Virus record (IMG/VR): IMGVR_UViG_3300009082_000959
Direction: 5' to 3' (one strand)
DNA: 64,000 bases
From: a virus
Taxonomy: Duplodnaviria; Caudoviricetes
The stretch's first letter is position 1; each line of letters opens with the position of its first letter. The notes under the pieces were generated by a model, which was not told where the DNA came from, searched no databases, and saw only the letters and a program-made list of their open reading frames with translations. This document shows, one piece after another, positions 7,075-64,000 of this stretch. The translations under genes and the position numbers were made by a program.

Positions 7075-7083
7075 AGGAGCAAA

Positions 7084-7455
7084 ATGGCAAAACCAGACAA
7101 CGCACAGATTCAACCACCACAAGCATCTTTTGATGTTCAGCAAGACTATGAAAGAAGAAAGAAAGAATTAGAAAGATCGTTTAAAGAGTTTCACAGGTTA
7201 GTTGGTAAAAAAGTATTAGACACAAATAAGTCACCGGAAGTTAAAAAAGCAGAACTCGCAGTAGTAAATGATTTAGTTAAAGCAGCACAATCACTTGATA
7301 ATGTGAATGTTGGAGAAGGTATTTTGGCTCTGGCATCAATAGCAATTAGAGAACAATTAATTGTTAGAGATAGAGTAAATCAGCTCGAATACGAATTATG
7401 TAAAGCCTTAAAAGATATTTCTGATTTAAAGGCAGCCAATGTCAAACCGAAGTAA
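7084..7455 (+). CDS. Hypothetical helical protein
   Basis: AAGGAG upstream of ATG. Confidence 0.75.
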   Translation: MAKPDNAQIQPPQASFDVQQDYERRKKELERSFKEFHRLVGKKVLDTNKSPEVKKAELAVVNDLVKAAQSLDNVNVGEGILALASIAIREQLIVRDRVNQLEYELCKALKDISDLKAANVKPK

Positions 7456-7657
7456 AGAATTAGAAGAAATAAGATTATATATAGAGACACTTGATACGGA
7501 GGAGCAAAATGCTCACTCCCATTTATTAAATACTCTCCAAAACACAATAGGTAGAACTTTTGAATTTGAAAATGTTGCAAAAGTTTTGAGAGAAGTATTG
7601 AATGCCAAATTAGGCATACTTGAAAAAATACGAAAGAAAATTCAAACATATGGGTAA
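7439..7657 (+). CDS. Hypothetical protein
   Basis: Overlaps both neighbours by a few codons. Confidence 0.6.
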   Translation: MSNRSKELEEIRLYIETLDTEEQNAHSHLLNTLQNTIGRTFEFENVAKVLREVLNAKLGILEKIRKKIQTYG

Positions 7658-8699
7658 TCAAGCCGAAGAAATGGCAGAGATTTTGTTGCAATTAAAAATA
7701 AATGCAGACATAATAAGTATAGATAACAGTGGAACTCTAACAAAATATTATCTTAAATTAAATCCAGGGGCCAAAGTATCTAAAATAGAAAATTGTTCTA
7801 CGGAGATAGCGCTTGGTATAAAATCTTATAGTAAGCCAATAATAAAAGTGGTATTAGAGCAGGGACTGGTTGTTCTTGAAGTATTGTCCAAACCAATAAA
7901 TTTTGTTGGCTTTTCAGAGTTGGCATGTGATATTTTGGCAGATAATAATTTGCCAATCCTATTAGGCAGGACACACGACGGAAAAGACCTAACAATTGAT
8001 TTAACAAAAATGCCACACTTGCTTGTGGCAGGAACAACCGGTTCTGGTAAATCTGTGCTGCTTCACTCAATGATAGCAAGCATTTTAACATTTAGTAATG
8101 CTAATTTAGTTTTGATAGACCCCAAGAAAGTAGAGTTTTCACATTACGCAAATATTAAAGAGTTGTTGTTTCCAATTATAACCGAAACCGAAGAAGCAGG
8201 AAAAGTTTTGTCCGACTTAATCAGCGAAATGGAAAACCGCTTTAAGTTTATGTCCAAGCATAGGATGAACAATATATCTATGGCAAAGGGTCAATTTAAG
8301 TATATTGTCCTCGTGATAGATGAATTTTCTGACCTGAACCAAACATCTAAAAAAGAGTTTCAGAATGACCTTTGTCGTTTAGCGCAAAAATCAAGAGCGT
8401 GCGGAATTCATATAATCATGGCAACACAAAGGCCATCCGTCGATGTGGTGACTGGTCTAATAAAAGCCAACTTTCCAACAAGAATAAGTTGTCGTGTCCC
8501 AACTTTGGTGGATAGTAGGGTTATATTGGGTTGCTCTGGCGCAGAAAAATTACTTGGAAACGGAGACTCACTAATCAATGTTGGAAGTGATTTAATAAGA
8601 TTTCAGGGTGCGTTCTTGTCTCAATCTGATATAATACAATTATCAAAAGCACATGAGATGAGCTGGCACTCGAAAATTTTTAATATGATTGGAATTTAA
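7650..8699 (+). CDS. ftsK: FtsK/SpoIIIE motor-domain protein (no TM or gamma domain)
   Basis: MPHLLVAGTTGSGKS, IDPKKVEF, VIDEFSDL, GIHIIMATQRPSVDVVTGLIKANFPTRI, GAEKLLGNGD; ATG 7650 preferred over 7620. Confidence 0.9.
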   Translation: MGNQAEEMAEILLQLKINADIISIDNSGTLTKYYLKLNPGAKVSKIENCSTEIALGIKSYSKPIIKVVLEQGLVVLEVLSKPINFVGFSELACDILADNNLPILLGRTHDGKDLTIDLTKMPHLLVAGTTGSGKSVLLHSMIASILTFSNANLVLIDPKKVEFSHYANIKELLFPIITETEEAGKVLSDLISEMENRFKFMSKHRMNNISMAKGQFKYIVLVIDEFSDLNQTSKKEFQNDLCRLAQKSRACGIHIIMATQRPSVDVVTGLIKANFPTRISCRVPTLVDSRVILGCSGAEKLLGNGDSLINVGSDLIRFQGAFLSQSDIIQLSKAHEMSWHSKIFNMIGI

Positions 8700-40240: not shown

Positions 40241-41008
40241 ATGAATATAAATGAGTTACTTGAGTCAATTGACAAAATATCAAAACTAAGTGGTTTGTCT
40301 AAGCCATTCATGGTTGGCGGCGTTCCAAGAGATCGTTTTTTGGGAAAGCTAGGAAAGCCCTCGGAAATAAAGGATGTTGATATTACAACAGGAAACAATG
40401 ATTCAAGAAAGCTTGCAGAAATATTGCATAAGAAATTTCCCAAAAGCACGTATAGGGAATACGATGACGGCCATATTTCATTAGATATATTTGGATTACA
40501 CATAGATTTCTCAAGTAATTTTGTTGCCCCTGGGGTATCCGAAGAATTGGCTAAAGCCGGAGTTACAGGTATATCACCAATGTTGCTTGAGGTTTATAGT
40601 CGAGATTTTACAATTAATACTCTGCTAGAGGATTTAGCTTTCTCAGGAATCTATGATTTAACAAAAGAGGGCATAAAGGACTTAAAAACCGGTGTAGTAA
40701 GGTGCCCAATAGATCCAGAAATAACAATAGGTGTTGATCCACGAAGAATATTGCGAGCAATTAAATTTTCAATAAAATATGGGTTTACAATTGAAGAAAA
40801 TCTTAAAAATGCTATTATGAATAATAGAAAAAAACTTCAATCTCTTCCTAGAAAATTTGTACAGGACAAAATAAGTGAAATTGTTACGCTCGATAGTGAT
40901 TTGGGAATCGATGAATTAATAAAATATAAAATTTTACCACTAGTTCCTTTATCAAAAACAGTTTCAGATATTTTAATACAAAAAAGAAAAATGGTTCACG
41001 CATTATAA
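40241..41008 (+). CDS. Class II nucleotidyltransferase (CCA/poly(A) polymerase family), divergent
   Basis: VGGVPRD, DVD catalytic pair, RDFTIN, DPRRILRAIKF; templating motif reads LEVYSRD instead of EDxxRRD. Confidence 0.88.
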   Translation: MNINELLESIDKISKLSGLSKPFMVGGVPRDRFLGKLGKPSEIKDVDITTGNNDSRKLAEILHKKFPKSTYREYDDGHISLDIFGLHIDFSSNFVAPGVSEELAKAGVTGISPMLLEVYSRDFTINTLLEDLAFSGIYDLTKEGIKDLKTGVVRCPIDPEITIGVDPRRILRAIKFSIKYGFTIEENLKNAIMNNRKKLQSLPRKFVQDKISEIVTLDSDLGIDELIKYKILPLVPLSKTVSDILIQKRKMVHAL

Positions 41009-44627: not shown

Positions 44628-46502
44628 ATGTCAGCAAACAAGTTATTTACAACGGCAGAACAATGGTTTGAAGACCTAAAAAAAGAAGTCTTAAAGATAG
44701 ACCCAGTGTCGTTTGCTGAAAACTATCTTGTCGTAGACGGAAAACCACTAAAACTTGGCGGCGGGACCGGCTGGAAATACCTTACTGATATTTACAGGTA
44801 CATGGCAACGAAAGCCATGGAAGAAGATGGGAAACCCGTAGTATGTGTTAAGGGTCGTCAGGTAGGCGCAACAACTGCCGCCACTGCACTTGAACTTTTT
44901 TTTTGCACCAGCGGGCTATACGGAACATCTCCAAATAAACCACCAATAAGACTTCTTCATTGTTTTCCTGCACTAGCTCTTGTGCAAAAATTCGCAAAAG
45001 ATAAATTAAGTACAATGATGAGAACATCAAAGGATAATTATATCCTTAATCATTCTCTTGGCTACGACGCTGAATCAAAGAAAAAGAGAATTGATGTTCC
45101 AGAAGATACTCTCACAGAAAAACAATTCACCAATGAAAATAGGCTTTGGGTTGATTCCAACGCCAATGATGCTCAAAGACTTCATGGTATGTCTTTGGAT
45201 GGTATTTTCTATGATGAGGTTCAGAGAATGAACCAAGATGACATAGGAAATAGCAAAAGAACCCTAACATCTGCTCGATATGGGCCCCGCGGACAAGGAA
45301 TCCAGATGTATTTTGGCACTCCTTTGCAGCGCGGTTCAAATTTTCACAAAATGTGGGAATCCTCTGACAAAAGATATTATCATCTTGGGTGTGAAAATTG
45401 TGGTCATTATTTTATGCTATATTCTCCTGGGAATGATGATTGGGAGAAAATATGGCTATATGCTAATGTTGTGGCTTGTCCAAAGTGTCACCACGAACAG
45501 GATAAAGTTGATGCAATAGAGCGCGGTAAATGGATTCCAATGCAACCAGTTCTGCCAGACGGAAAGGAACCACAGTATGTTGGATTTCATTTTAATCAAT
45601 TGCTGATACCAAATTTTCATAAAGAAACGGTCATTAAAGAAAAACCAGGAATACATCCAACAAACTCAGAGCGCATTTGGCAAAACGAAATATTAGGAGA
45701 GTTTTACAGTGGTGAAGATTTGCCAATGTCGGAAGAAGAAATATATAAGTATTGTAGAGATATAGACAGAAGCATTTCATTTGGAGGCCCAGGCACATCC
45801 ATAAAAAGAGTGCAAAGCAACAAGATTTATTCTTCGAGTAAAATTCCCACTTTTTTGGGCATCGACTGGGGTGGTAAAATAGACGATCCAAATTCCAAGA
45901 TAGGAAAATCGTTTTCTTGTATGGCAATTATATCTGTTGATAAGGATGCGGTAGTGAGAATAGAGAATGCATTTAAACTAAAAAAGAATGATTTGCAACA
46001 CAAAAAAGATGTAGTAAGGGAAATGTTCAGAAGATTTGATATCAATTGCGCTGTCGCAGACTTAGGTCATGGTAATGATATAGTTCCAGAGCTTCAGGGG
46101 GAATTTGGAAACAGGTTAATAGGAAGCATAAGCAGTGGTAGTCTAACTAATCCAACGAAATATGACCCAGAGGAACTAAGACTGATTATAAATCATCACG
46201 TATTACTGGAAGATTTATTCGCGCATATGAGAAAGGGTAAAGTATTATTTCCATGGAAAAGTTATGAGCAAATTCAGTGGCTTATAGAGCACTGCTGTTC
46301 AATGGAAAAAGAAATACACACAGTTCAGGGTCGAGTCATATCAAGATTTGTAAAGGGTACCGGACCCAACGACGGTCTTATGGCTCTCCTATATGCCTAT
46401 TTGGCGTATAAATTTTATCTAACGCAAGGGTTTACGATAAAGGCCCACCAACTAAATGCAAAAAGTGCCGGACCAATATTGGCTTATTTGCCAAGTTTTT
46501 AA
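44628..46502 (+). CDS. terL: Terminase large subunit
   Basis: KGRQVGATT Walker A variant, IFYDE Walker B, FGTP, CENC...CPKC, nuclease GIDWG. Confidence 0.9.
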   Translation: MSANKLFTTAEQWFEDLKKEVLKIDPVSFAENYLVVDGKPLKLGGGTGWKYLTDIYRYMATKAMEEDGKPVVCVKGRQVGATTAATALELFFCTSGLYGTSPNKPPIRLLHCFPALALVQKFAKDKLSTMMRTSKDNYILNHSLGYDAESKKKRIDVPEDTLTEKQFTNENRLWVDSNANDAQRLHGMSLDGIFYDEVQRMNQDDIGNSKRTLTSARYGPRGQGIQMYFGTPLQRGSNFHKMWESSDKRYYHLGCENCGHYFMLYSPGNDDWEKIWLYANVVACPKCHHEQDKVDAIERGKWIPMQPVLPDGKEPQYVGFHFNQLLIPNFHKETVIKEKPGIHPTNSERIWQNEILGEFYSGEDLPMSEEEIYKYCRDIDRSISFGGPGTSIKRVQSNKIYSSSKIPTFLGIDWGGKIDDPNSKIGKSFSCMAIISVDKDAVVRIENAFKLKKNDLQHKKDVVREMFRRFDINCAVADLGHGNDIVPELQGEFGNRLIGSISSGSLTNPTKYDPEELRLIINHHVLLEDLFAHMRKGKVLFPWKSYEQIQWLIEHCCSMEKEIHTVQGRVISRFVKGTGPNDGLMALLYAYLAYKFYLTQGFTIKAHQLNAKSAGPILAYLPSF

Positions 46503-47192: not shown

Positions 47193-50100
47193 ATGGAAAT
47201 ACGAAGAGGTCCATGGAAACCTGCTACAACCAATAAAGTAGCAACAGTAAAATCCAGTAGGTTCGGTGCGCGTCCAGCAACTGTTCTTAGTCCTGGTGTA
47301 TCAAATTCAGAGCACCATTTGGCTAATCGGCAGGCAGATACTGGCGCTATTCCCGAAAAAGTGTCAGAGTTTAGACAGGCAGAAATAATTAGAGCGACAG
47401 GATCCTCAAACAACCAAATCAAAGAGTCGCCTGCTCCATTATTATTATATAGTAATTCGTTCAAAAAATCTCAAGAAATAAAAGAAAATTTCCTGAGAAA
47501 AAGTGCCGCGTCTGTGACTTCTGGTGGATATAGTTCTGCTGGCGGCGGAACAACCATACAGGCACCAGAAATATATTCTCCACTATTTCAAATTGCAAAC
47601 CTACAGCTTCCGCGCGAAAGAATAACAATGAATGCGTGGAATAGAAATTTTTATGATACACATCCATTGGTTCACAACTGCATTAATTTGCACGCAACTT
47701 ATCCAATTAATAAAATAAACATTAAGTGCAAAGATGGCAAAATAGAACAATTTTTTAAGGATATGGCAGAGAACATAGACTTAATAGGTGTTTTGCAGGG
47801 AATGGCACTTGAGATTTTTAAGATTGGTGAGTGTTTCCCCTATGCCGAGTTGGATGAAAGAACTGGTGCTTGGAAAAGTATCGTAATTCAAAACCCAGAC
47901 TACATCCACATAAAAACATCTGTATTGGGAGGTGATCCAGTAATATCACTATCACCAGATGCGGCACTAAAACGATTGGTTCAAAGTAATAATCCAGCAG
48001 ACATACAATTAAGAAGCCAAATAGACGATGAAATTCTATATCACATTCGTAAGGGAAACAACATTCCTTTGGATAATTTTCACATAAGTCATTTGGCCCT
48101 TAAATCAGCTCCCTACGATGTGCATGGAACATCTCCAATAGTTACTGTCTACAAAGATCTTATGCTGTATGACAAACTTAGGGAGTGTTATTCTTCCGAT
48201 ACAGAAGTTTTGACTGATTCTGGTTTTATGAATGGTCTTGAATTGTCATTAAAGTATAAGAACAGTAATCAAAGCGATTTGCCATCTATTGCTTGTTTTA
48301 ATTCAGAAACAGAGATGGTTGAGCATCATAAACCAATAAAAACACATATATCAGAATATAATGGAAATATGTATAGGTTTAAGGGTAAAAAAGTAGATAT
48401 TCTCGTTACACCAGAGCATCGTATGTGGGTCAATAAGAACAAAAAGACTGGTTGGTCTGGATGGCATTTTGAACAAGCAAAGGATGTTAGCCCGTCCTAC
48501 TGGTACAAGTTTAGATGCCACGCAAAATACAATGAAGGCGAAAAGGTTGAATTTATTGATGTTCTTGGTAAAAAAATACCATCGGAACTTTACATGAAGG
48601 TTTTGGGACACATAATTTCGGAAGGATGTGTTTATCAAAGTTATAAAAACGGAAGATATGATAATAATGTTTCTATATGTCAAAATATAGAATCTAAATA
48701 TCAACAAAATATGAGAAATAATTTTAAGCAGTTTGCTGAATTATTGGGGAAAAATCTCGTAGAAAATACTAAGGTGGTTGGGTCTGGGTTTAGTGCACAT
48801 TCTCCAAAAAATAAGTGGGAAGCATTAGTGAGTGGTAAGGATTTAGTAAATTACTTCAAAAAAGAAATTGGAACAAATGATGTTTGTAATTCCGGAACCA
48901 AAAGAATTCCTAGGTGGATATTTGGACTACATTCTGATTTGTTAAAGTGTTTGTTGGAATCATTAATGGAGGGCGACGGGCATTTTTCAAGTAGTTTGTA
49001 TAATACAACATCAAAAGGCTTTCGTTATGACACTGGCTCAAAACAACTAGCAGATGATGTATATGAGTTAGTCTATCGCCTTGGATTTGTTCCGTTATTG
49101 CGAACAGTAGATAGGACTGGAGAAAATACTGGGAAAAATTTATTAGAATACTCTGTCTCTTGGTCAAACACACATTATGGCCGTGAGCCGCGTGTGTATG
49201 GAAAATCAGATTCAAAGCATCACGGTGCCCATATTGGTCAAACAGATTATGATGGTTTAGTTTGGTGCTTCGAAGTTCCTACTGGATTATTTATAACACG
49301 CAGAAATGGCAAAATAACTATTCAGGGAAACTCTAAATATGCACAGGCTGATAGCCTTGTAAATCCAATTACACTAATAAAAGTTGGTGGGGCTGGAGAA
49401 GGAGAATACAAAGCAACCGGTGATGACTTGGAGAAATGGCGTCAAATAATGGAGTGTCATGATGAAGAGACCGAGGTATTGACTGACCACGGTTTTAAGA
49501 AGTTTTTTGATGCAATTGATTACACAAGGAGCGATGATGTTGCTGTTTACACTGCATCACCAAAGACTGGAATAAAAATAGCTTGTTTTAATAATGATAC
49601 AAAACAACTTGAGTATCATATTCCATCCAGAGCTACTTTATATGATTATTCTGGAGAAATGTATCATTTCAGTGGCGGAAAATTAGATATCAAAGTTACA
49701 CCCAATCACAGAATGCTTGTTACAAGAAAACTAAAGAAAGGTTGGTCTAATAGTGAGATAATTACTGCTGAAAACCTTTCACTGGGGACACACTATAGGT
49801 TTAGGTCAGTCGCAAAATTCAACGGTGAAGAAAAAGAATCAATTAATGTTTGTGGGAAAAGTATAAAAACTGATGATTATTTGGAATTTTTGGGAAATGT
49901 TATAAGTGAGGGATATGTTTGTAAGATAAATGACAAGTATTATAATAGCATAACATTATATCAAGAAAATTGTTCTCCAGAAAAAAATAGTATGGAAACC
50001 AATTTAGAAAAAATAGCAAATTGTTTTGGGAAAACCATACAATCAAAAACAATTGATAATAGCCATACTCCATTTTCCGGCACAAATACAAGCACGATGT

Positions 50101-51422
50101 GGCGAGGAATTCTGTGCTCATCTGTTTTAACCAAACATTTGTTTGAAGAAATAGGTGAAAACGGAAAATGTAATTCGCACAACAAACGCATTCCAAGGTG
50201 GATTTATTCTCTATCTACACGACAAATGAAAATACTTATTAATTCTCTTGTCGCAGGAGATGGAACAAAATACACAAGTAAAACTGGTAAGAGTGGATTT
50301 AAATATAGTACAATATCTGAAAATTTGGCAAAAGACCTACATGAATTAGTGTTTTTGGCCGGGTTTGCTCCAAAAGTATATAAAACAAAGAATGGTCAAG
50401 GAAAAGACTATTGGCTTGTTACCTGGACTGAGAGTGGCAAGGGATCATTCCCGCATTTCGGTGGAGTATCAAATAAAAGAGAACAACAACTCACTAAAGA
50501 GCAATATAATGGTAAGGTTTGGTGCTTTACTGTTCCAACAGGATTATTTGTCACCAGACGAAACGGTTTAATTACAATTCAGGGTAATAGCGCTGAGTAT
50601 GATAAAAACTTTAAGATAATTACTCATGCAGGCGTTACGGTTGAAAGAGTTGGTGCTAATGGATCAATATTAGATATAAACCCAGACATGCAGGCTATTT
50701 TAGATAATATTTTGTACGGTCTTATGGTTCCAAAAGCGGTAGTGACACAGGAAGGTTCGTCTTTCAACAGCGCAACTGTTGGTCTAGAAGTTCTTAGGCA
50801 GCGCTACGAGGCTTTTAGGAACATGATGTCGCAGTGGCTCATTAAAAAGATATTTGCTCCAATCAGCGAAATACAAGAATTTTATGAGTATAAAGATGGG
50901 GATAAAAAACTTATTGTCCCAGACATTGAGTGGAATAGAATGATATTGTTTGATATGGATAACTATATCAGTGTATTAAACGGATTGGTCAAAGAAAAAG
51001 CAGTATCCAAGACTACACTTTTTAGAAGCCTTGGTCTAAACATCGATGAAGAGAATAGACTTCGTAAGGAAGAACTAATAAAAGAAGCTATAATAGGAAA
51101 AGAAACAGCTATTCTAAATTCAATGACTCTTGGTGCCTTGCGCTCACTAAAGGCAGAGGACGATATAATAGAACCAACAGACCAGGTTTCTCTACCTGGG
51201 ACACCTGGTTCAGAGGAATCAGGAATACCTGGAATGACTCCTCCTGGCGCCGGCGGATTAGGCGGTGGGGGTCTTGGTGGCTCTCCAATGCCTCCAATGG
51301 GCGGACTTGGCGGCGGCCTAGGTGAGCTTCCAACAGAGGGCCTTGGCGGCCCTGAAGCTCCTGCGGGCGGTGGAGAAACACCTCAAAGCCCAACGCCAGC
51401 ACCTACATCACCAACACAATAA
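47193..51422 (+). CDS. Portal protein containing two inteins (about 649 aa after splicing)
   Basis: Position after terL; extein motifs PEIYSPL, IGECFPY, IQNPDYI; Gly/Pro-rich tail; the portal call rests mainly on context. Confidence 0.8.
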   Translation: MEIRRGPWKPATTNKVATVKSSRFGARPATVLSPGVSNSEHHLANRQADTGAIPEKVSEFRQAEIIRATGSSNNQIKESPAPLLLYSNSFKKSQEIKENFLRKSAASVTSGGYSSAGGGTTIQAPEIYSPLFQIANLQLPRERITMNAWNRNFYDTHPLVHNCINLHATYPINKINIKCKDGKIEQFFKDMAENIDLIGVLQGMALEIFKIGECFPYAELDERTGAWKSIVIQNPDYIHIKTSVLGGDPVISLSPDAALKRLVQSNNPADIQLRSQIDDEILYHIRKGNNIPLDNFHISHLALKSAPYDVHGTSPIVTVYKDLMLYDKLRECYSSDTEVLTDSGFMNGLELSLKYKNSNQSDLPSIACFNSETEMVEHHKPIKTHISEYNGNMYRFKGKKVDILVTPEHRMWVNKNKKTGWSGWHFEQAKDVSPSYWYKFRCHAKYNEGEKVEFIDVLGKKIPSELYMKVLGHIISEGCVYQSYKNGRYDNNVSICQNIESKYQQNMRNNFKQFAELLGKNLVENTKVVGSGFSAHSPKNKWEALVSGKDLVNYFKKEIGTNDVCNSGTKRIPRWIFGLHSDLLKCLLESLMEGDGHFSSSLYNTTSKGFRYDTGSKQLADDVYELVYRLGFVPLLRTVDRTGENTGKNLLEYSVSWSNTHYGREPRVYGKSDSKHHGAHIGQTDYDGLVWCFEVPTGLFITRRNGKITIQGNSKYAQADSLVNPITLIKVGGAGEGEYKATGDDLEKWRQIMECHDEETEVLTDHGFKKFFDAIDYTRSDDVAVYTASPKTGIKIACFNNDTKQLEYHIPSRATLYDYSGEMYHFSGGKLDIKVTPNHRMLVTRKLKKGWSNSEIITAENLSLGTHYRFRSVAKFNGEEKESINVCGKSIKTDDYLEFLGNVISEGYVCKINDKYYNSITLYQENCSPEKNSMETNLEKIANCFGKTIQSKTIDNSHTPFSGTNTSTMWRGILCSSVLTKHLFEEIGENGKCNSHNKRIPRWIYSLSTRQMKILINSLVAGDGTKYTSKTGKSGFKYSTISENLAKDLHELVFLAGFAPKVYKTKNGQGKDYWLVTWTESGKGSFPHFGGVSNKREQQLTKEQYNGKVWCFTVPTGLFVTRRNGLITIQGNSAEYDKNFKIITHAGVTVERVGANGSILDINPDMQAILDNILYGLMVPKAVVTQEGSSFNSATVGLEVLRQRYEAFRNMMSQWLIKKIFAPISEIQEFYEYKDGDKKLIVPDIEWNRMILFDMDNYISVLNGLVKEKAVSKTTLFRSLGLNIDEENRLRKEELIKEAIIGKETAILNSMTLGALRSLKAEDDIIEPTDQVSLPGTPGSEESGIPGMTPPGAGGLGGGGLGGSPMPPMGGLGGGLGELPTEGLGGPEAPAGGGETPQSPTPAPTSPTQ
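48186..49331 (+). mobile_element. Intein 1 with LAGLIDADG endonuclease (382 aa)
   Basis: E|CYSSDTEVLT ... VWCFEVPTGLFITRRNGKITIQGN|S; LGHIISEG and LMEGDG motifs. Confidence 0.92.
49455..50588 (+). mobile_element. Intein 2 with LAGLIDADG endonuclease (378 aa)
   Basis: E|CHDEETEVLT ... VWCFTVPTGLFVTRRNGLITIQGN|S; LGNVISEG and LVAGDG motifs. Confidence 0.92.
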
Positions 51423-52466: not shown

Positions 52467-55400
52467 ATGCTATTCAATAATTTTAAAATTTTATCAAAAC
52501 GCGCCAAAGTTGTCAGTGATAAACCTGCATACAAAGACAAACAAGAAAGTGACAGCGGGAACACAATTTATCACTATGACGAAAAACATTTATCAAAACG
52601 CTGGCAACACAAGCGAGATAAGGTAAAAAATCTCGAAAAAAATGTAAAGAAAATACGAGAACAATATGAGAAGGATTTAAGTTCAGATGATCCCAGAACA
52701 CGCGCTATTGCTGCTGTTGTTGGTGTTATAGATGATACGGCCGCGCGCGTTGGAAATCCTGACTCTATTAAAGATCATGACACATATGGTATAACTACGC
52801 TAAAACTAAAGCACATTTCGTTTAGCGGCGGCAAAGCAAAACTAAAATTCCCAGGAAAAGACAATGTTAATCAAGACCTTACTGTTGATAATAAGAAAGT
52901 CATTAAGGTCTTAAAAGAACTTACCAAAGACAAGAAAAAAGATGATTTCCTTTTTGAGGTTGATGGGAAAAGAATTTGGGACCGTGCTATCAATAGATAT
53001 TTGTCTCCCTTTAAGATTAGTGCAAAGGATTTGCGCGGTTTCCATGCCAATCGTTTAATGAAAGAGTTACTGAAGAAAAAAGACTTTGACGAGGCTTTAG
53101 AGGAAACGGCCTCCATTGTGGGTCATGAAAAAGCAACGCTCAAAAATCAATACCTTTTACCCGAATTAGTCGAAAAATACGAAGGCAAAAAGAAAGATGC
53201 TAGCATAATGCGTTTATCAAAACGCGCTGAACTCACACCAGAAGACTTGGCTTGGGTTAATAGCATTAAGGGTTTGACTGCTGATGTTCCTTCTGCGCCA
53301 GCAACACAAACAGGTGGCGTAAAAATAAACAGTTTAATACTAGCTGCTTGGCAAACTTTATTACCATTTTTGCCAAAGGGTTCTGTGATTACTTCCGGAG
53401 AAAGAACGGCAGATGATCAAAAACGAATCCTGGAACACTATTGGCAAAAAGCAACTGGCCAAAAAATACCAGATAAACTTAAAGCCAATGATAGCGTATG
53501 GTTCCAAGTATCTAAGTCTCTTAAAGAGGACTATGGTTATATAGTTGGACCTCCGAAAACAAATGATCCTTATTCTCACTTGAACGGAAGAGCACTTGAT
53601 GTTTCTGGTGCAAACTTAAATCAAATTGCCAATATAGCGGCTTCTGTATCAAACAACCCAAAATTACCAGTAAAATTTAGAAAACCAGTAATAGAGAAGC
53701 AAAACAATTGTGTTCATCTGGGAATAGAGAACGCAGAATATAATCCTGCGGCAATTAAAGAAGTATTAAGTAGCGGATTGGGAGTTACTGCATCTATATC
53801 TGTGCGTGCAAATAAATTTTTGGATGAAATGGGTTTTGGTCTTGAAACAGAACAGGGTGATTTATTTGAGAAATCACCAATATTCAGGCATTATGATGGC
53901 TACCAAACATACAAAATTCATGATATTAGCGAAACAGAAGCTAGCAAATTAGCAAAGAGTGAACCAGACGAATTCTTTTATCGCGGACTACACAAAGAAT
54001 ACGCTAATCTTGTTCCTGGTGCTTTACGTAGCATGATACAATCGAATGCAAAATTTTTCTTTGTATTTGATTATCACAAAGATGAAAAATATTCAGACTT
54101 GTTAATTTTGGCCGCCGAACTATTATCTCAACAGGACCCTAGGGCATTTTTCTATTTCGGCCTACATAAAAAGTTTCCAGAATTAGGCAGAGGTGCTGTT
54201 GTTCAGTTGATTGATACCAATCCGGACTCATTTTTCGATCTTGGTCTGGAAAAAGAATACAGCGATTTAGAGGGAAGTGCTGGTGCTGCCAGAAACATAA
54301 AAGACCCAAATAAAATTGAAATAGAAAAAGATTCTAATTTGAATAAAGCAGCAGAGGAAGACGACGAAGAAAAAAAGAAATTAGAGGAATATTTGAAACT
54401 TCGAGAAAAATATAAGCGATTATTTAAAGACAGAGACTATAAAGAGTTTCCACCAGAGGACCGCAAAAAGGAATTTTGGAAGCATCAATTTAATCCAAAG
54501 GAAATTGGTAGTTTTCCTAGTTTCTGGGAATATCCAAAAGAAGAAGACCCGGATCGTGAGGAAAAAGAAGAAGACCTTAAAAAAAGACGCAAACAGTACT
54601 GGCAGCACCAATTAAGTCCCACCCGGTGGCTTGGCTATGGCGCTATTCCTTTTTGGAAATATCCGAAGAGTTCTGTGATGCCAGTGCTATCAAAACGCGC
54701 AGAAGTCAATGACGTTGCTGGCGTATTTGCAGTATTGCCAAAAGAAATAGCAAAACAATTTAAGTCTCTTGGTGACCACGACAACAGTGATCCACACATA
54801 ACTGTGATTTTTTGCGGTAAAGTAAAAAAGAAAGATAGAAAGTTGCTGGAAGAAACTGTCAGAGGAGTAATAGAAAACTGGAAGCCCTTTAAAGCAGAAT
54901 TAGATAGCAAGGTCACTTATTTTCCTGCAACCAAAAATTCAGATGGCTGTAAAATAGCTAAAATGAGTGTGAAATCCAAAGAACTTCACAGACTGCACAA
55001 AGAATTAAAAGAAGCGATTGAAAGCGCCGGAATAGAAATCGATGATACATTTCCTGATTACAAACCACACGTGACATTGGAATATTTAGAAAAAGGTGCA
55101 ACAAAATACGAAGACGAAGTTCCGGAAGGCTCTTGGGAAATAGATTGTGTAGAAATTTGGGGAATTGGTAAAAATAGAAAAATTAAATTTGACAAGCACG
55201 AGAAGAAAGCGTGTCTATCAAAACGGGCATCATTCACAGAAGAAGAGGCGAAGGAACTGGCCGAAAAAGGTTCTGATACTTTTTTTTACTATCACCTACA
55301 GGAAACCTACCCACATCTCGCAGAACAGGCGGCGCGTAATCTAGCAAAAGTATCAGCATTTGATTTTTTTTATTACAGACTACACGAAACATACCCACAT

Positions 55401-58400
55401 CTTATAGAATACACAGTACAAAAGTTGGTAGAAGAGAATCCCAAAATGTTCTTTTTTCGTGGTTTTCACAAAACATATCCACATCTTACAGAACAAGCCG
55501 CCAAAAACCTAGTAGAAGAGGATTCTGGATATTTCTTTAGTTATGGACTACAGGAAACATTTCCACATCTTACAGAACAAGCCGCCAAAAGCCTAGCAGA
55601 AAAGGATCCTGATACTTTGTTTTTTAGGAAACTAGATAAAATTTATCCACAATTAGGTGAGTTGGCAGCCAAAAACCTAGCAGAAAATAAACCTGCCGAT
55701 TTCTTTTACTTCAAGCTGCATAAAACCTACCCACAAATAGGAGAACAGGTGGCCAAATACCTGGCAGAAAATAATATTAGTACATTCTTTCATTACAATT
55801 TACAAGAAATCTACCCAAAACAGGGCGAGCTACTATCAAAAAATCTAGCAGAAAAGGATCCTGATACTTTCTTTCGCAGGGAATTACACAAAATTTATCC
55901 GCAACTAGGTGAATTGGCAGCAAAGAGTACGGCAGAAGAGGATCCAAAAAAGTTCTTTCTTTTTGGATTACACAAAACCTATACACACTTTGCAGAATTG
56001 GCAGCAAAAGGCATTGCGGAAATCATTCCTGGTTATTTCTTTGATACTGAATTACATAAAATATACCCACAGTTATCAGAACAGGCTGCCGAAAATTTGG
56101 CGAAAGAAAATATTGTGTCCTTCTTTTATCGCAAAATACACGAAACCTATCCACATATCGCAGAACAAGCTGCCAAAAACCTAGCAGAAAATGATGAGGG
56201 AGAATTCTTTAAATTAAATTTGCAAAAAACTTATCCACAGTTTGCGGAACAACCAATAACAAATAGATTAAAAGCACAGAAACAATTTGATTACGAAAAT
56301 CCCGATCACAGAAATAGACCTCTTAAAGCAAAACAATTAGCCAGTAAAATGTATAATCAGGGATATAAAACCTACATACACACTAATGATTTAGATGATT
56401 TGGATGGAATCGGCAGTATTCCTGGGGAAATTTGTGTAAGTTCTTGGGACTTATCCAGAAAACTGTTTTCCTCAAGCCCAATGACTTACGCTGCAATTTT
56501 TGAGGGAAGACCTTCACATTTCTTTAATCAAGATGCTTGGTCTGACGTAGGTCAGGATGGCCTACGATTTTTGACAAGTATTGGGAGAGATAGGGACTTT
56601 TACGAAATGGATGAAAACCATGACGAAGCTTGGTTTAATCCACTAGCACCAGGAAACAAATTAGTTGGCTTTGCTTTAGTGGGAATACCGAAAGATCAAG
56701 AAACATATCAAGATGGAAAGAAAAAACTACAAAAACTGGCGGAGAAAAACGGAGTAGCGTATTTGGAGTTTGGAGAAAATCCTTGGGACTTGAAAAAAAT
56801 CAGAGAAAAACCTTTAATGAAAGAATATGAAAAACCAAACCCAATGATCAGCAAATATAAAAATCTACCAGAAATGAGAGACTACGCTAAACTGAAACTA
56901 TCAAAACGTGCCGAAGAGGAAACAACAATACAACTTACCGACAAAGAAAAACAAATCTTTGATGTTTTGCTTGAAACAATAAAGCATTTTAATTTAAAAT
57001 CCACCATTAGAGTTGCCGGCGGTTGGGCTAGAGATAAAATACTTGGGAAAAATAGTAAAGACATAGATATAGCAATTGATAATATGTCTGGTAAGCAGTT
57101 TGCCGAAAAAGTATTGCTATTTGCTCGCACGAAAAACATTCCAGTAAAATCAGTTGGAGTAATAGAGGCCAGACCAGAACAATCAAAACATCTCGAAACA
57201 GCTGTGGTTAATTTACTAGGCGAGAGTATAGACTTTGTAAATTTGCGCGCAGAAAAATATGATCCAGAAACCAGAATTCCAACGGCAGTTCCTGGAACTG
57301 CTCTTGAGGACTCATATCGTAGAGACTTGACCATTAATAGTTTATTTTACAATATTAATACTGGGAAAATAGAAGATTTGACCGGCAAAGGTATAGATGA
57401 TTTAAAAAATAAAATAATAAGAACGCCAGTTCCGCCGAAGGAAATTTGGTCACAGGTTGGAATTACAGACGAATCACAAGCAATTACTCCAAAGAAAACC
57501 TTTATGGATGACCCACTTCGTGTTCTTCGTGCAATTAGGTTTGCCTCAAGATACGGATTTTCTTTGGCACCAGAATTAATGGAAGCAGCAAAGGACCCCG
57601 AAGTTCAGGAATCATTTAAAAACAAAATATCTAGAGAGCGCATCGAGGCAGAATTAAGAAAAATGATAACTGGTCCAAATCCTGTTTGGGCTCTAAATTT
57701 AATAAACGAGTTGGGTTTTAGGTCTGAAGTATTAAAACTCCCAGAACAAACAAACTGGAAAACCGGTGATGAAGATATTTGGGGAAACATAATTCAAACA
57801 CTGGATAATTTACAAAGTATAATAAAAGAAAGAAATTTGGGTGAAGCAGACAAGTTCGTTATTAATTTTGCGGCATTCTTGCATGATGTTGGCCTACTTG
57901 ATCCAAAAAACCAAGACGCGAAAAAATTGGAGAAATCCATTGGACGATCTGAATCCAGCGTCGTAGTCGCAGAACATGTATTACGAAATTTGCCAGGCGT
58001 AAGGGTTGATGAAATAGAAAGAGTAAAGAAACTAATAGATGCCACCAAACTAATAGAAAACCAAAAACACGATTTGTCTGCTATTACACGAAAACAATTG
58101 GGTAATTTTGTTAGAGCAATAGGAGACGATTGGGAAAATGCAGTTGATATTTTGGCTGCACGAAACAAGGCCAACGAAGGATTTAGTCCAGAGTATTACA
58201 GTGGAATTAAAAAACAGGTAAAGGATTTTGGTCTTGAAAAAGCCCACACAATGAAACCGCTTTTGACTGGCGAAGAATTAATGAAATTGTTTGAAAGAAA
58301 GGGCGGAAAGTGGATGGGAGACCTAAATAGAGAACTAATTCAATGGCAGTTAGAAAATCCAAACGCAACGAAGGATGATGCAATTGTCGCAGCAAAAGAC

Positions 58401-60275
58401 ATTTATGGTAAGTTTGGGTTAGATAAAAAATCATCTCTTGGCCGTTTGTCTAAATTGGCTAGTGCTGGTTTTTCAGATAAAGATGTAATTGATTTATACA
58501 AATTTATGTATTTGCGAAACCAATTAGAAAGAAGAGGAGACCCGGAAAGCGATAGTTATATTGAGTATTTAGATGAAACTATGAATGATAAACTAAAGCA
58601 TATTTTTTATGTCCTGTCGACGGTATTTGAAAAATGGCTAAAAAGACATCGAGCTATGTTTGGTGATTTAAATAATCTAGAGAATTTTGAAACCGCCGTT
58701 GCATGGTATGTTGGTAATTTAATGGATCATGTGCATGAAAAAGACATCAACAAGGCGGAGCAATACTTACCACAGTCTCGTGATGAGGTTTTAAAGTGGA
58801 AAAATACATTTAATACAATACACGAAATATACGAAAATCTTGCAAAAGGTCCATCCAGAGACATGAATAGTAATTTCTCTATAATAAGTCGCGCAATTGG
58901 GGCATCACATATCCATGGTGATATGTTGTCGTATATTAAAGAAACAGTCGATGATCCAAACCAACAAATTACGCCAGAATTAATGTCTCAATTGACTTCT
59001 GGAAAACACGAAGATTTTAAAGAGTGGAACAAAGAACTGCGAAGAATTGGTTGTAAAAAATTACACTTATCGAAGAGAGCGTCTGTTTCTGAAGAAGAAG
59101 CAAAAGACCTAGCAGAAAAAGATCCAGATAGTTTCTTTATAGACAAACTACACAAAATATACCCCAAACTTGGTGGGTTAGCTGCAAAGAATTTAGCAGA
59201 AAAAGATCCTAATAAATTCTTTTCTAGATCACTACATATAACCTACCCACATCTTGAGGAATTAGCAGCCAAAAACCTATCAGAAAATGATCATTATAGT
59301 TTTTTTTATAATGGATTACACGAAATTTATCCGCAACTAGGTGAGCAAGCTGCCAAAAACCTAGCAGAAAATGATTTTCATGAGTTCCTTGCTTTTGGGT
59401 TACACAAAATCTATCCCCAAACCGCAGTTCAAGCAGCAAAAAATCTGTCAGAAAAAGATCCAGAAAATTTCTTTTATTTCGAACTACAGCAAATCTATCC
59501 ACAATTCGGGGCCCTGGCGGCCAAAAAGATAGCAGAAGATGATGCAGAGAAATTCTTTAAATTAAATTTGCAAAAAACTTACCCACAGTTTTCAGAACAA
59601 CTCATAAAAAACAGACTAAAAGCACAGAAACAATTTGACGAGGAAAATCCAAATCGCAAAAATAGGCCACTTAAAGCAAAGCAATTGGCTAATGAAATGT
59701 ATAATCATGGATATAAAACCTACATACACACTAATCACCTAGAAGATTTAGACGGAATTGGTAGTATTCCTGGGGAAATTTGTGTAAGTTCTTGGGATTT
59801 GTCTCGTAAGCTTTTTTCTGCAAACCCAATGACTTATGCTGCTATTTTTGAGGGGAAGCCTTCACACTTTTTTAATCAAGATGTTTATTCTAATATAGGC
59901 AAAGATGGCTTGCGGGTTTTGACAGACACCATGCGTGATGACACCTCTATTTACGAAATGGATGAAAACCATGACGAAGCTTGGTTTAATCCACTTACTC
60001 CGGGAAACAAACTGGTTGGTTTTGCTTTAGTGGGAATACCAAAAGACGAAAAAGAATACCAAGAAGCCAAGAAACAGCTACAAAAACTAGCGGAGAAAAA
60101 TGGAGTATCTTTCCTAGAATTTGGTGAAAGTCCCTGGGACTTGAAAAAAATCAGAGAAAAACCTTTGATGAAAGAATATGAAAAACCAAACCCAATGATC
60201 AGCAAATATAAAAATCTACCAGAAATGAGAGACTACGCTAAACTGAAACTATCAAAACGAACCAACATTGGTTGA
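52467..60275 (+). CDS. 2602-aa multi-enzyme polyprotein-like ORF (TopoIB, M15 peptidase, 2H phosphoesterase, repeat+ART-like x2, CCA-adding enzyme, unknown modules)
   Basis: Family motifs in each segment; LSKRA-type pentapeptides at aa 9, 250, 444, 625, 741, 917, 1478, 1994, 2201, 2595. Confidence 0.88.
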   Translation: MLFNNFKILSKRAKVVSDKPAYKDKQESDSGNTIYHYDEKHLSKRWQHKRDKVKNLEKNVKKIREQYEKDLSSDDPRTRAIAAVVGVIDDTAARVGNPDSIKDHDTYGITTLKLKHISFSGGKAKLKFPGKDNVNQDLTVDNKKVIKVLKELTKDKKKDDFLFEVDGKRIWDRAINRYLSPFKISAKDLRGFHANRLMKELLKKKDFDEALEETASIVGHEKATLKNQYLLPELVEKYEGKKKDASIMRLSKRAELTPEDLAWVNSIKGLTADVPSAPATQTGGVKINSLILAAWQTLLPFLPKGSVITSGERTADDQKRILEHYWQKATGQKIPDKLKANDSVWFQVSKSLKEDYGYIVGPPKTNDPYSHLNGRALDVSGANLNQIANIAASVSNNPKLPVKFRKPVIEKQNNCVHLGIENAEYNPAAIKEVLSSGLGVTASISVRANKFLDEMGFGLETEQGDLFEKSPIFRHYDGYQTYKIHDISETEASKLAKSEPDEFFYRGLHKEYANLVPGALRSMIQSNAKFFFVFDYHKDEKYSDLLILAAELLSQQDPRAFFYFGLHKKFPELGRGAVVQLIDTNPDSFFDLGLEKEYSDLEGSAGAARNIKDPNKIEIEKDSNLNKAAEEDDEEKKKLEEYLKLREKYKRLFKDRDYKEFPPEDRKKEFWKHQFNPKEIGSFPSFWEYPKEEDPDREEKEEDLKKRRKQYWQHQLSPTRWLGYGAIPFWKYPKSSVMPVLSKRAEVNDVAGVFAVLPKEIAKQFKSLGDHDNSDPHITVIFCGKVKKKDRKLLEETVRGVIENWKPFKAELDSKVTYFPATKNSDGCKIAKMSVKSKELHRLHKELKEAIESAGIEIDDTFPDYKPHVTLEYLEKGATKYEDEVPEGSWEIDCVEIWGIGKNRKIKFDKHEKKACLSKRASFTEEEAKELAEKGSDTFFYYHLQETYPHLAEQAARNLAKVSAFDFFYYRLHETYPHLIEYTVQKLVEENPKMFFFRGFHKTYPHLTEQAAKNLVEEDSGYFFSYGLQETFPHLTEQAAKSLAEKDPDTLFFRKLDKIYPQLGELAAKNLAENKPADFFYFKLHKTYPQIGEQVAKYLAENNISTFFHYNLQEIYPKQGELLSKNLAEKDPDTFFRRELHKIYPQLGELAAKSTAEEDPKKFFLFGLHKTYTHFAELAAKGIAEIIPGYFFDTELHKIYPQLSEQAAENLAKENIVSFFYRKIHETYPHIAEQAAKNLAENDEGEFFKLNLQKTYPQFAEQPITNRLKAQKQFDYENPDHRNRPLKAKQLASKMYNQGYKTYIHTNDLDDLDGIGSIPGEICVSSWDLSRKLFSSSPMTYAAIFEGRPSHFFNQDAWSDVGQDGLRFLTSIGRDRDFYEMDENHDEAWFNPLAPGNKLVGFALVGIPKDQETYQDGKKKLQKLAEKNGVAYLEFGENPWDLKKIREKPLMKEYEKPNPMISKYKNLPEMRDYAKLKLSKRAEEETTIQLTDKEKQIFDVLLETIKHFNLKSTIRVAGGWARDKILGKNSKDIDIAIDNMSGKQFAEKVLLFARTKNIPVKSVGVIEARPEQSKHLETAVVNLLGESIDFVNLRAEKYDPETRIPTAVPGTALEDSYRRDLTINSLFYNINTGKIEDLTGKGIDDLKNKIIRTPVPPKEIWSQVGITDESQAITPKKTFMDDPLRVLRAIRFASRYGFSLAPELMEAAKDPEVQESFKNKISRERIEAELRKMITGPNPVWALNLINELGFRSEVLKLPEQTNWKTGDEDIWGNIIQTLDNLQSIIKERNLGEADKFVINFAAFLHDVGLLDPKNQDAKKLEKSIGRSESSVVVAEHVLRNLPGVRVDEIERVKKLIDATKLIENQKHDLSAITRKQLGNFVRAIGDDWENAVDILAARNKANEGFSPEYYSGIKKQVKDFGLEKAHTMKPLLTGEELMKLFERKGGKWMGDLNRELIQWQLENPNATKDDAIVAAKDIYGKFGLDKKSSLGRLSKLASAGFSDKDVIDLYKFMYLRNQLERRGDPESDSYIEYLDETMNDKLKHIFYVLSTVFEKWLKRHRAMFGDLNNLENFETAVAWYVGNLMDHVHEKDINKAEQYLPQSRDEVLKWKNTFNTIHEIYENLAKGPSRDMNSNFSIISRAIGASHIHGDMLSYIKETVDDPNQQITPELMSQLTSGKHEDFKEWNKELRRIGCKKLHLSKRASVSEEEAKDLAEKDPDSFFIDKLHKIYPKLGGLAAKNLAEKDPNKFFSRSLHITYPHLEELAAKNLSENDHYSFFYNGLHEIYPQLGEQAAKNLAENDFHEFLAFGLHKIYPQTAVQAAKNLSEKDPENFFYFELQQIYPQFGALAAKKIAEDDAEKFFKLNLQKTYPQFSEQLIKNRLKAQKQFDEENPNRKNRPLKAKQLANEMYNHGYKTYIHTNHLEDLDGIGSIPGEICVSSWDLSRKLFSANPMTYAAIFEGKPSHFFNQDVYSNIGKDGLRVLTDTMRDDTSIYEMDENHDEAWFNPLTPGNKLVGFALVGIPKDEKEYQEAKKQLQKLAEKNGVSFLEFGESPWDLKKIREKPLMKEYEKPNPMISKYKNLPEMRDYAKLKLSKRTNIG
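55230..56252 (+). repeat. About 12 tandem 28-aa (84-nt) repeats
   Basis: Consensus YPQLxEQAAKNLAExDPxxFFxxxLHKT. Confidence 0.92.
56203..56908 (+). repeat. About 700-nt direct duplication; second copy at 59551-60259
   Basis: Near-identical DNA; the last ~120 nt differ at about one position and run through the LSKR codons. Confidence 0.92.
59082..59600 (+). repeat. About 6 tandem 28-aa repeats of the same family
   Basis: Same consensus as 55230-56252. Confidence 0.92.
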
Positions 60276-60319
60276 AATATACTAATAAAATCACATTTAT
60301 CAGTAGAAGGAGAGAGTTT

Positions 60320-61000
60320 ATGAAAAAAATCGCATCTGGCGCCGAGATTATGAGCACCATACTATCTTTTACTGAAGCACTCGAAGAAATGTATGAGCAT
60401 ATGCATTGGAGGGCTTCTGGACCAAATTACTACGGTGATCATCTTTTGTATCAGAGACTGTATGAAGACATAGAGGGCGAAATAGATGGAATAGCTGAAA
60501 AGGCAGTTGGTGTTTTTGGGCCAGATTCGATAGGCCCAAACAAAAATATTTCAGAAACAGCCAAAATAACTGAAAAACTTATTTCTGATACTGATACAGC
60601 AGAAAAATTTCCAGAGATAGCAATATCCGCAGAGGAAAAGTTTGTTGAATTGGTTTCTCGCGCGCTTAAAGAAATGGATAAAAGCAACGAATTAACCAAT
60701 GGCATAGATAATATGCTACAGGGTGTGGTAGATAGCCACGAAGGTCACTTGTATTTATTAAAGCAAAGGGCTAATAAAAAGGAATCAAGCACAGTCATAA
60801 GACTGTTTAAGTTGGCATACTATTTGGATAGAAAGTCCTTATACAACGAAGCACGAGAAATAGAAGAAGTTATGCTACAATTGGCAAAACGAGTGGGCAT
60901 AAATCAAGAAGAAATGGTATCACTGGCTGATGAATTGGATCAAATTGGGGATACTGTCGTAGCGGATAAAATAGATAATATGATTAAATCAAATAAATAA
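60320..61000 (+). CDS. Dps/ferritin-like protein with two C-terminal helical tags
   Basis: HW...H...Y...D..AE (HMHWRASGPNYYGDHLLYQRLYEDIEGEIDGIAEK); LLKQRA, then two tag copies; AAGGAG before ATG 60320. Confidence 0.78.
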   Translation: MKKIASGAEIMSTILSFTEALEEMYEHMHWRASGPNYYGDHLLYQRLYEDIEGEIDGIAEKAVGVFGPDSIGPNKNISETAKITEKLISDTDTAEKFPEIAISAEEKFVELVSRALKEMDKSNELTNGIDNMLQGVVDSHEGHLYLLKQRANKKESSTVIRLFKLAYYLDRKSLYNEAREIEEVMLQLAKRVGINQEEMVSLADELDQIGDTVVADKIDNMIKSNK

Positions 61001-61387: not shown

Positions 61388-61789
61388 ATGGAAATCCTTA
61401 AAAAACTAGCTACTTTGGCAAATGAACTTGATAAGATGGGGCTTACTGCTGAAGCAACTGAAATAGACCTTATAATTGAAAAGTTGGGCCAAAACGGAAT
61501 TGATAATGTTTTTGAGCAAATAAAAAATGAGATTACTCCGTTTATTCCAGCAGGAACGCTTAAATGGAATCCCAAAAAGCCAGTATTATCCCTTCGTCCA
61601 GTATTAGATGAGTATTATCCTGGATTATTTAGAAAGGGAATGACTGCGGACGGATTACTGGAGGCCATAAGAAATTCCAACAAAACAAAGACAAAACCAA
61701 CCACAGCTCCAATTGGTCAAACGAGAGACCCTGGACCAATTAAAGTCGATTTTCAAATGCCATCGCCTGGACCACAACCTAAACTATAA
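61388..61789 (+). CDS. Putative virion protein with N-terminal helical tag
   Basis: LKKLATLANELDKMGLTAEATEID; GGAG RBS. Confidence 0.78.
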   Translation: MEILKKLATLANELDKMGLTAEATEIDLIIEKLGQNGIDNVFEQIKNEITPFIPAGTLKWNPKKPVLSLRPVLDEYYPGLFRKGMTADGLLEAIRNSNKTKTKPTTAPIGQTRDPGPIKVDFQMPSPGPQPKL

Positions 61790-62699: not shown

Positions 62700-63515
62700 A
62701 TGAAATTTTTGCAGAGACTTATTAAATTAGCAAATGATTTGGACAGCCGCGGTCTTTTTGGCGAGGCTGACGAACTTGATGCAATTATACGAAATGCAGC
62801 GGACGGCGTCTTTGGCCCAGGAACAGGCGGATTGGCTGGATTACCAACACCATCTATGGAGGGAGCCTATCAAAGATACAAATCACGAACCAGTCCAGAC
62901 AATATAAAAACCTGGCAATCACAATATAATGCCGCCCTTCAATTGCTACAAAAACGCTTGGGATTTTTGCCAAGCGGAATGACACCGCTTAAAGTAGATG
63001 GAATAAGGGGCAAAAACACTATTATGGCCATGAATTATGTAAAGCAAATTCTTGGCGGAAAAGGAACACTAAAAAACTTTGTAGAAACAGTTGTCGCTAA
63101 CGAAATGAACAATAAACAATTAGGTAGTCCAGCAGTTGCAACACGAGAACAAATTACCGATGCTCTAAAAAAATATGTTGAACAGAACATGAGCATTACT
63201 GATGCTCCACTCGACGCAGAAGTTCAAAATAATATAACTGGTGTCGCCAATAAATTATTCGAACAAGTTGCACAAGGACAACTAACCCAAAAACAACTAC
63301 TCTCTGCCATAGTTGATTCCGCAAGGTCAATAGGTTCGCAGTTTGAGGAAAGAATGTATGCACAAATGGGTGAAAACCCTCTTAAAGATTTCGAGATCTC
63401 CGCACCAACACAACCAAAACCATCAATGATTAGAGAGCCACGCGGAGGACAGATAGGAACCTATATGCCAATCCCAGACAGCGTAATGCCAACCACAAAT
63501 TACCCAATAAAGTAA
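62700..63515 (+). CDS. Tagged protein with a peptidoglycan-binding-like domain
   Basis: N-terminal LIKLANDLDSRGLFGEADELD; IKTWQ...LKVDGIRGKNT resembles PG_binding_1. Confidence 0.72.
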   Translation: MKFLQRLIKLANDLDSRGLFGEADELDAIIRNAADGVFGPGTGGLAGLPTPSMEGAYQRYKSRTSPDNIKTWQSQYNAALQLLQKRLGFLPSGMTPLKVDGIRGKNTIMAMNYVKQILGGKGTLKNFVETVVANEMNNKQLGSPAVATREQITDALKKYVEQNMSITDAPLDAEVQNNITGVANKLFEQVAQGQLTQKQLLSAIVDSARSIGSQFEERMYAQMGENPLKDFEISAPTQPKPSMIREPRGGQIGTYMPIPDSVMPTTNYPIK

Positions 63516-63527
63516 AAGAGGACTAAA

Positions 63528-64000
63528 ATGATCACCAAACTTGTAAAACTAGCAAATCACCTAGACTCAATTGGAGAACACGATTTAGCAGACCAAATTG
63601 ATGCTATAGTAAAAAGCGCCGCATTGTTGAGCGCAAGAAATAGTTTAATTGATGCGCTTAAAAACGACGACACCAAAAAGGCCAATGACGCAATTATGGA
63701 ATTGGTGTCTCAAATTCCGCGCGGCTCTAATGCCGCTGATGAATTGGGTATTTCCAGCAAAGAATTCAAAGAACTTGCTAATGCCATACACACAGGTGAT
63801 CTTGAATCAGCGCGCAAAGTATTTAATGTTGGCAAAGCGGTAAGCAAGGACCCAAATAAAATAAATCCCTTTACAGGACAACCATGGCCATCCGGAGAAG
63901 TAAAAGAGGAACCAAAGCAGTCTGATACGGGTAAAAAGAAATATGAATTTACGGGGAAAGAAACATCCACAAGAGGGTTTGGTGGAGTAAAAGTAAAAGA
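63528..64000 (+). CDS. Tagged putative virion protein (runs off the window; absent from the ORF track)
   Basis: GAGGA RBS, ATG 63528; MITKLVKLANHLDSIGEHDLADQIDAIVKSAA; frame open to the end. Confidence 0.8.
   Translation, partial: MITKLVKLANHLDSIGEHDLADQIDAIVKSAALLSARNSLIDALKNDDTKKANDAIMELVSQIPRGSNAADELGISSKEFKELANAIHTGDLESARKVFNVGKAVSKDPNKINPFTGQPWPSGEVKEEPKQSDTGKKKYEFTGKETSTRGFGGVKVK

Follow-up and report, generated by a model that had tools for sequence, protein, structure and literature searches.

What is the domain of about 220 amino acids (aa) that an uncultured phage of the class Caudoviricetes encodes twice in one giant protein, each time behind an array of 28-aa repeats? The question is raised by the IMG/VR virus record IMGVR_UViG_3300009082_000959 (Duplodnaviria), of which we analyzed a stretch of 64,000 nucleotides (nt), hereafter the window. 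A single open reading frame (ORF) of this stretch encodes a polyprotein with two modules, A and B, each consisting of a repeat arm and a C-terminal domain that we denote X. By its predicted structure, X is a rare new sequence family with the ADP-ribosyltransferase (ART) fold and a mixed signature, filed under no described family. The account that we favor, with a confidence a little above even, is that the modules are cleavable cargo packaged in the phage head, in which the ART-fold domain modifies a host target using nicotinamide adenine dinucleotide (NAD+) and the arm serves as a binding or adaptor element.

Two repeat-and-domain modules in one polyprotein

The two modules had been described in an earlier note on this DNA as arrays of about 12 and about 6 units, each followed by a domain of about 220 aa ending in KLKLSKR. 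We recovered both arrays in exact 28-aa register and found the same terminal motif in both domain copies. The coordinates are as follows.

52467..60275, + strand: giant polyprotein ORF, a single ORF of 2602 aa that holds modules A and B
55227..56252 (aa 921-1262), + strand: repeat arm of module A, 12 units in exact 28-aa register, isoelectric point (pI) 5.6
56253..56909 (aa 1263-1481, 219 aa), + strand: domain X copy 1, predicted ART fold, ending in KLKLSKR
56379-56381 and 56433-56441: candidate active-site residues His1305 and Cys1323-Val-Ser1325 of copy 1
56532-56534 and, for the Glu, 56625-56627: candidate active-site residues Asp1356 and Asp1386-Glu1387 of copy 1
59079..59600 (aa 2205-2378), + strand: repeat arm of module B, 6 units of 28 aa, pI 5.3
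59601..60260 (aa 2379-2598), + strand: domain X copy 2, ending in KLKLSKR four residues before the stop codon; the counterparts His2421, Cys2439-Val-Ser2441, Asp2472, and Glu2504 are kept

The two X copies share 84% protein identity and 85% DNA identity over 712 alignment columns. The near-identity in DNA previously ascribed to them is confined to the last 44 codons (56778-56909 vs 60129-60260), which are 97% identical with a synonymous divergence (dS) of 0.14, whereas the remainder of the domain shows 78-84% DNA identity and dS of 0.7-1.4. With an overall dS of 0.77, the duplication is not recent, and the ratio of nonsynonymous to synonymous divergence (dN/dS) of 0.12, uniform at ~0.1 across the core, indicates that both copies are under purifying selection. 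The near-identity of the last 44 codons points to gene conversion or to additional constraint on the C-terminal tail, a poorly modeled, conserved region that carries a KY-x-x-[LI]-PEM motif and an LSKR site. The duplication appears to be specific to this phage because each of the relatives examined has one X, apart from P0007, a protein with three diverged X copies.

Homologues of domain X

Among 1.84 billion cluster representatives searched exhaustively with HMMER, only eight proteins were found to contain X, five of them large, multi-cassette proteins and the other three short. The domain architectures of the large relatives are given below.

P0002: CCA-adding/HD region, X, GGACT
P0004: long repeat array, X
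P0005: topoisomerase IB, repeats, X, LigD phosphoesterase
P0006: ATP-dependent ligase, repeats, X
P0007 (locus L002, 10001-17701, 2566 aa): encoded on a different phage contig, three diverged X copies, ending in ...YLSKR

All four X loci that were compared are phage contigs, and in three of the four the X protein lies in the terminase-portal head block or its equivalent; at the fourth, that of P0007, a terminase gene is nearby but on the opposite strand. Motifs of the D-x-D-G-D type, noticed by eye in the C-terminal half of P0007, brought to mind a two-barrel RNA polymerase, an assignment that the searches did not support.

Neither X copy, nor any of the 12 family members, matched a Pfam family at E-values up to 10. 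X likewise had no match in PHROGs or NCBIfam, nor among PDB sequences, whether a single sequence (phmmer) or a profile was used. Searches of 50,697 phage records with tblastn and megablast returned nothing, as did pattern scans of IMG/VR (with one protein and with the alignment), a metagenome contig scan, and a word-indexed protein search with the X alignment.

The family alignment comprises 12 copies, whose identity to copy 1 is 24-46% except in the paralogous copy 2, where it is 84%. Invariant or nearly invariant are, in X numbering, H43, E59, [ST]63, G85, D94, S97, D124, E125, and P130, with H43 kept in each of the 11 copies aligned at this column and D124-E125 in 12 of 12. A cysteine protease was among the assignments considered and rejected for X: the cysteine of the ICVSS motif is Ser in P0005 and in one of the P0007 copies.

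Predicted fold and ART signature

AlphaFold2 modeling with the X alignment yielded a structure with a predicted local distance difference test (pLDDT) score of 83.7 and a predicted template modeling (pTM) score of 0.78, in which the core arrangement of ARTs is recognizable: a split beta-sheet with strand 1, helix, strand 2, strands 3-4, a loop, and strands 5-6. The earlier note had suggested a structure search as a check of its ART reading, and the predicted fold is indeed an ART-type split sheet: Foldseek search against PDB placed the mono-ADP-ribosyltransferase CteC at the top (E 0.012, probability 0.97), with DarT and Tpt1 next. The named matches in AlphaFold DB were DarT/DUF4433 and yeast Tpt1. 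A shape search of the ESM Atlas and one of the BFVD viral library brought up only weak matches or matches without a name. Language-model neighbors included DarT, OspC, Arr, and PARP clusters, all scoring below 0.9 and thus leads only.

The candidate NAD+-site residues fall where an ART would have them. The motifs YIHT, ICVSS, and HDEAW, which had been read from the sequence as following the ART order of H/R, SxS, and E strands, are present in both copies and keep that order in the model: H43 lies on strand 40-45 (predicted NAD+-site His), [CS]61-x-[ST]63 is on strand 60-64 in every copy, and the predicted catalytic Glu, E125, is the first residue of strand 125-128. Judged by the ends of the aligned ranges, an offset correspondence rather than a superposition, H43 stands opposite R65 of CteC and H862 of PARP1, and E125 is within one residue of PARP1 E988. 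CteC relies on R65/S97/E220 together with D134 (PMC10810742). In X, the residue equivalent to D134 may be D94. The signature of X, with His, an S-x-S-like motif, and Glu, mixes features of the two classical ART classes. The interpretation of the modules as ART/NADase-like effectors holds in part.

X could instead share with ARTs only the alpha/beta arrangement and have a different function, for example, that of a protease that cuts its own LSKR| ends. We consider this very improbable. In the structure comparison, the ten best-ranked matches all belong to the ART superfamily, with Z scores ~3 units higher than those of the best unrelated folds, and protease folds are absent among the matches listed; Ser63 is replaced by Thr in two members and Cys61 by Ser in others, a poor pattern for a nucleophile; and X is present in only two of the polyprotein cassettes.

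Another alternative, which we rate as unlikely, is that X is an ART-fold enzyme acting on nucleic acid ends or bases, through Tpt1/KptA-like removal of a 2'-phosphate or DarT-like base ADP-ribosylation, as the NAD+-dependent step of an injected repair or modification kit. Tpt1/KptA is two-lobed, and its N-terminal RNA-binding lobe carries most of the Arg-His-Arg-Arg tetrad. Of Tpt1, only the C-terminal NAD+ lobe (chain residues 101-230) matches X in structure; PF01885 is not matched, and the family alignment contains no conserved Arg. A protein target is likelier than a nucleic acid because the arm is acidic.

The 28-residue repeat arms

The repeat unit has the consensus P-[HQ]-L-G-E-Q-A-A-K-N-L-A-E-x-D-P-x-x-F-F-x-x-x-L-H-K-[TI]-Y, with variation within the unit concentrated at positions 4, 14, 16-18, and 21-23. 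Direct-repeat families with 84-nt spacing were recovered independently in the DNA. The model of the module B arm is an alpha-solenoid with three helices per unit and pLDDT above 90. The arms resemble Armadillo, PUF, and PPR alpha-solenoids in that short units of three helices, arranged in tandem, build a superhelical arm and in that the variable residues cluster at fixed positions of the unit. Comparison of the 28-aa repeat with known repeat families gave no clear match, and the word-indexed search with the repeat arm returned one unnamed protein. This solenoid repeat appears to be new and undescribed.

In addition to the two arms, the polyprotein contains a third array, placed by the earlier note at approximately 53930-54280, in agreement with the position found here.

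53958..54293 (aa 498-609), + strand: degenerate array of four units of the same 28-aa repeat, with no X after it

This stretch is kept in the relative P0005 at 50% identity. Arrays without X are found in the cassette spanning aa 254-744 and as the first array of P0006, and X without arrays in P0002 and P0007-P0009, so the fusion of X with the arm is frequent but not obligatory, each also occurring without the other.

The free number of repeats and their presence without X fit an explanation in which X is a pseudo-ART, that is, a non-enzymatic binding or structural module of internal head proteins that retains an ART-like fold, and the arrays are packing or spacer elements that unfold for ejection. 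The conserved KY-x-x-[LI]-PEM tail, with the high identity of its codons between the two copies, suggests a role in assembly or processing, and in P0004, a helical tag common to head proteins (see below) directly follows X. However, His, Asp, and Asp-Glu are invariant at the NAD+-site positions across copies as little as 24-46% identical to copy 1, which is more typical of catalysis than of a scaffold, and dN/dS shows the same low value throughout the core. We regard a pseudo-ART as unlikely.

Cassettes and the LSKR|A motif

The modules are cassettes of the polyprotein, which is divided as follows.

aa 13-253: topoisomerase IB (Pfam Topoisom_I, 1.9e-30)
aa 254-744: cassette with the four degenerate 28-aa repeats, unassigned
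aa 745-920: 2H phosphoesterase (PF13563, 2_5_RNA_ligase2, 9.5e-12; TIGR02258, 2.3e-11)
aa 921-1481: module A (repeat arm and X copy 1)
aa 1482-1997: CCA-adding enzyme/poly(A) polymerase with HD region (PolyA_pol, 6.6e-25)
aa 1998-2204: cassette without an assigned family
aa 2205-2598: module B (repeat arm and X copy 2)

A short motif parts the cassettes, with the following occurrences.

55215..55229, + strand: LSKR|A boundary motif preceding module A, candidate protease cut site
nt 52491, 53214, 54687, 56898, and 59067, + strand: further LSKR|A motifs, candidate cut sites
nt 58446, + strand: LSKL|A variant at a domain boundary
nt 60249, + strand: LSKR|T, four residues ahead of the stop codon

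LSKR occurs eight times in the polyprotein against 0.065 expected, a count that was reached in none of 20,000 shuffles, and it is absent from every other ORF of the window. Six of the eight copies are at domain boundaries and followed by Ala; the eighth precedes Trp within the topoisomerase domain and is probably not a cut site. Because the codons for LSKR vary between sites, the constraint acts on the peptide. In P0005, encoded in the syntenic locus L001, [LI]SKR followed by Ala or Ser is likewise concentrated in the polyprotein. As a candidate for the protease that cuts at LSKR|, we considered the product of a Trypsin_2 gene located downstream in L001 but did not adopt it: its N-terminus resembles a lipoprotein signal, and the last ORF of the window is not homologous to it.

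Several observations concern individual cassettes. The 2H phosphoesterase cassette (54699-55226) matches RNA 2',3'-cyclic phosphodiesterase and shows a sub-threshold match to Acb1, an inhibitor of the cyclic oligonucleotide-based antiphage signaling system (anti-CBASS; E 1.6e-4, 21.9 bits, cut-off 27). Conceivably, the phage packages an enzyme that breaks down cyclic nucleotides. Before the LSKR of the cassette spanning aa 254-744, a motif consisting of a basic stretch, Y/F-W-x-[HD]-Q-x-x-P ... F-W-x-Y-P, is twice repeated (aa 655-741, nt ~54430-54690); it is present twice also in P0006 (aa ~1290-1370), directly ahead of the repeat array. An M15/LAS-type peptidase, recognized by eye from a motif in the same cassette, found no support in Pfam, NCBIfam, or PDB sequences. 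In the relative L003 (6826-9407), the CCA-adding cassette is split: one ORF closes with its first 47 residues, the next starts with the remainder, and between these two pieces lies a DUF7487 gene (6983-7756), which has the look of a mobile gene that entered the polyprotein.

Proposed function and comparison with known systems

In the reading of the modules as cleavable head cargo, what we observe is the duplicated modules, purifying selection on X, its ART-like predicted fold and conserved triad, the boundary motif, and the synteny of the head module; cleavage, packaging, ejection, catalysis, the target, and the role of the arm are inferred. Under this scenario, the polyprotein would be made late and loaded into the capsid, a phage protease would cut it at LSKR|A, and the cassettes would be delivered with the DNA. 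In each of the proteins released from modules A (~65 kDa) and B (~46 kDa), an acidic alpha-solenoid arm would be followed, at the C-terminus, by a catalytic domain belonging to the ADP-ribosyltransferase superfamily. The His of strand 1 and the [CS]-x-[ST] motif of strand 2 would bind NAD+, and the Glu of strand 5 would transfer ADP-ribose to a host target or cleave NAD+.

For the polyvalent proteins of phages and conjugative elements, packaging and delivery together with the DNA have been predicted (Iyer, Burroughs, Anand, de Souza, Aravind 2017, PMC5512222). ARTs are their commonest protein-modifying domain, sometimes present in several copies (PMC5512222). Like these proteins, the 2602-aa ORF encodes a very large protein of the head or packaging block that strings together unrelated enzyme domains, and its relatives are syntenic. 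The ARTs of polyvalent proteins are of the H-Y-D type (Tox-ART-HYD2/ART-PolyVal), in contrast to X, which lacks any Pfam match. Also unlike in polyvalent proteins, no embedded zincin peptidase domain was detected here, and the short LSKR|A motif separates the cassettes; that paper describes no arm of 28-aa repeats (PMC5512222). The kind of protein, polyvalent head cargo, is already known, and what is new is the X family with its mixed signature and, apparently, the 28-aa repeat fused to it, the fusion being present twice.

T4 Alt is a protease-processed mono-ART. It is made late, travels in the head, and is delivered along with the DNA (PMC9503650, PMC5512222), a likeness in which packaging of X is what we infer. 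The signature of Alt, a member of the Alt/VIP2 clade, is R-S-E; in X, which has no sequence match, the first position is His. Alt is encoded by a separate gene and lacks a solenoid arm, whereas X is part of polyprotein cassettes. CteC from Chromobacterium violaceum, which mono-ADP-ribosylates Thr66 of ubiquitin (PDB 8UX2, 8HTE), shares ~11% sequence identity with X. Arg65 of CteC corresponds to His in X, and X has no stretch long enough for the ubiquitin-recruiting insertion F157-R194. Unlike X, CteC is a type III secretion effector active in eukaryotic cells.

A broader hypothesis, which we rate as rather unlikely, is that X founds an undescribed ART clade with the signature His/[CS]-x-[ST]/Asp-Glu and is the NAD+-dependent member of a capsid-loaded, LSKR|A-cut, and injected kit for nucleic acid repair and anti-defense. 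The kit would include topoisomerase IB, the 2H phosphodiesterase, and the CCA-adding enzyme, joined in relatives by the ligase and the LigD phosphoesterase, and the 28-aa arms would be length-variable adaptors aiming the duplicated copies at different substrates.

ADP-ribosyltransferases packaged in the head belong to the earliest-acting phage proteins of an infection, and only a few, such as T4 Alt, have been studied. As head cargo, X would add to them a sequence family that is missed by current profile libraries and whose active-site signature is unusual. The compact 28-residue repeat could serve as a new solenoid scaffold. The presence of X beside RNA- and DNA-end-repair enzymes in one putatively cleavable cargo makes it possible to test, in a concrete case, which proteins huge phages inject to forestall host defenses.

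Genomic setting and other head-region features

The window is phage DNA, with a G+C content of 35% and nearly all long ORFs on the + strand. The polyprotein is encoded between the portal and HNH genes on its upstream side and a Dps/ferritin-like gene on its downstream side.

44628-46502: large terminase gene, upstream of the polyprotein ORF
47193-51422: intein-bearing portal gene, upstream of the polyprotein ORF
60272-61000: Dps/ferritin-like gene, next to the cargo polyprotein in the head module

The locus was also covered by contigs from a second assembler (Logan), built from the sole public run containing this DNA, a freshwater sediment metagenome; no RNA run containing it is listed. These contigs reproduce both repeat arrays and both X copies with zero differences; the run is probably the source sample and so does not represent independent data.

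The portal gene encodes 1409 aa owing to intein insertions, with LAGLIDADG and Intein_splicing matches and a PhoH-like piece; the portals of the relatives have 677 aa without inteins in L001 and 1054 aa with one intein in L003. A second, separate tRNA-nucleotidyltransferase-like gene lies outside the polyprotein (40241-41008, 255 aa), with 59% identity to its counterpart in L001. The relative L004 also encodes a Dps/ferritin-like protein (6739-7455) near the cargo genes, and this protein may be another packaged one.

Several otherwise unrelated head-region proteins carry, at the start or end, a helical tag of ~30 aa with the pattern L-x-K-L-A-x-x-L-D-x-x-G ... A-D-x-[IL]-D.

61388-61480, 62700-62800, and 63528-63620: helical tag in the window
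~18542, 19231, 20986, 23096, and 24328: helical tag in L001

In P0004, the tag that follows X occupies the place of the LSKR|A of the window. The tag may be a capsid-targeting or docking signal.
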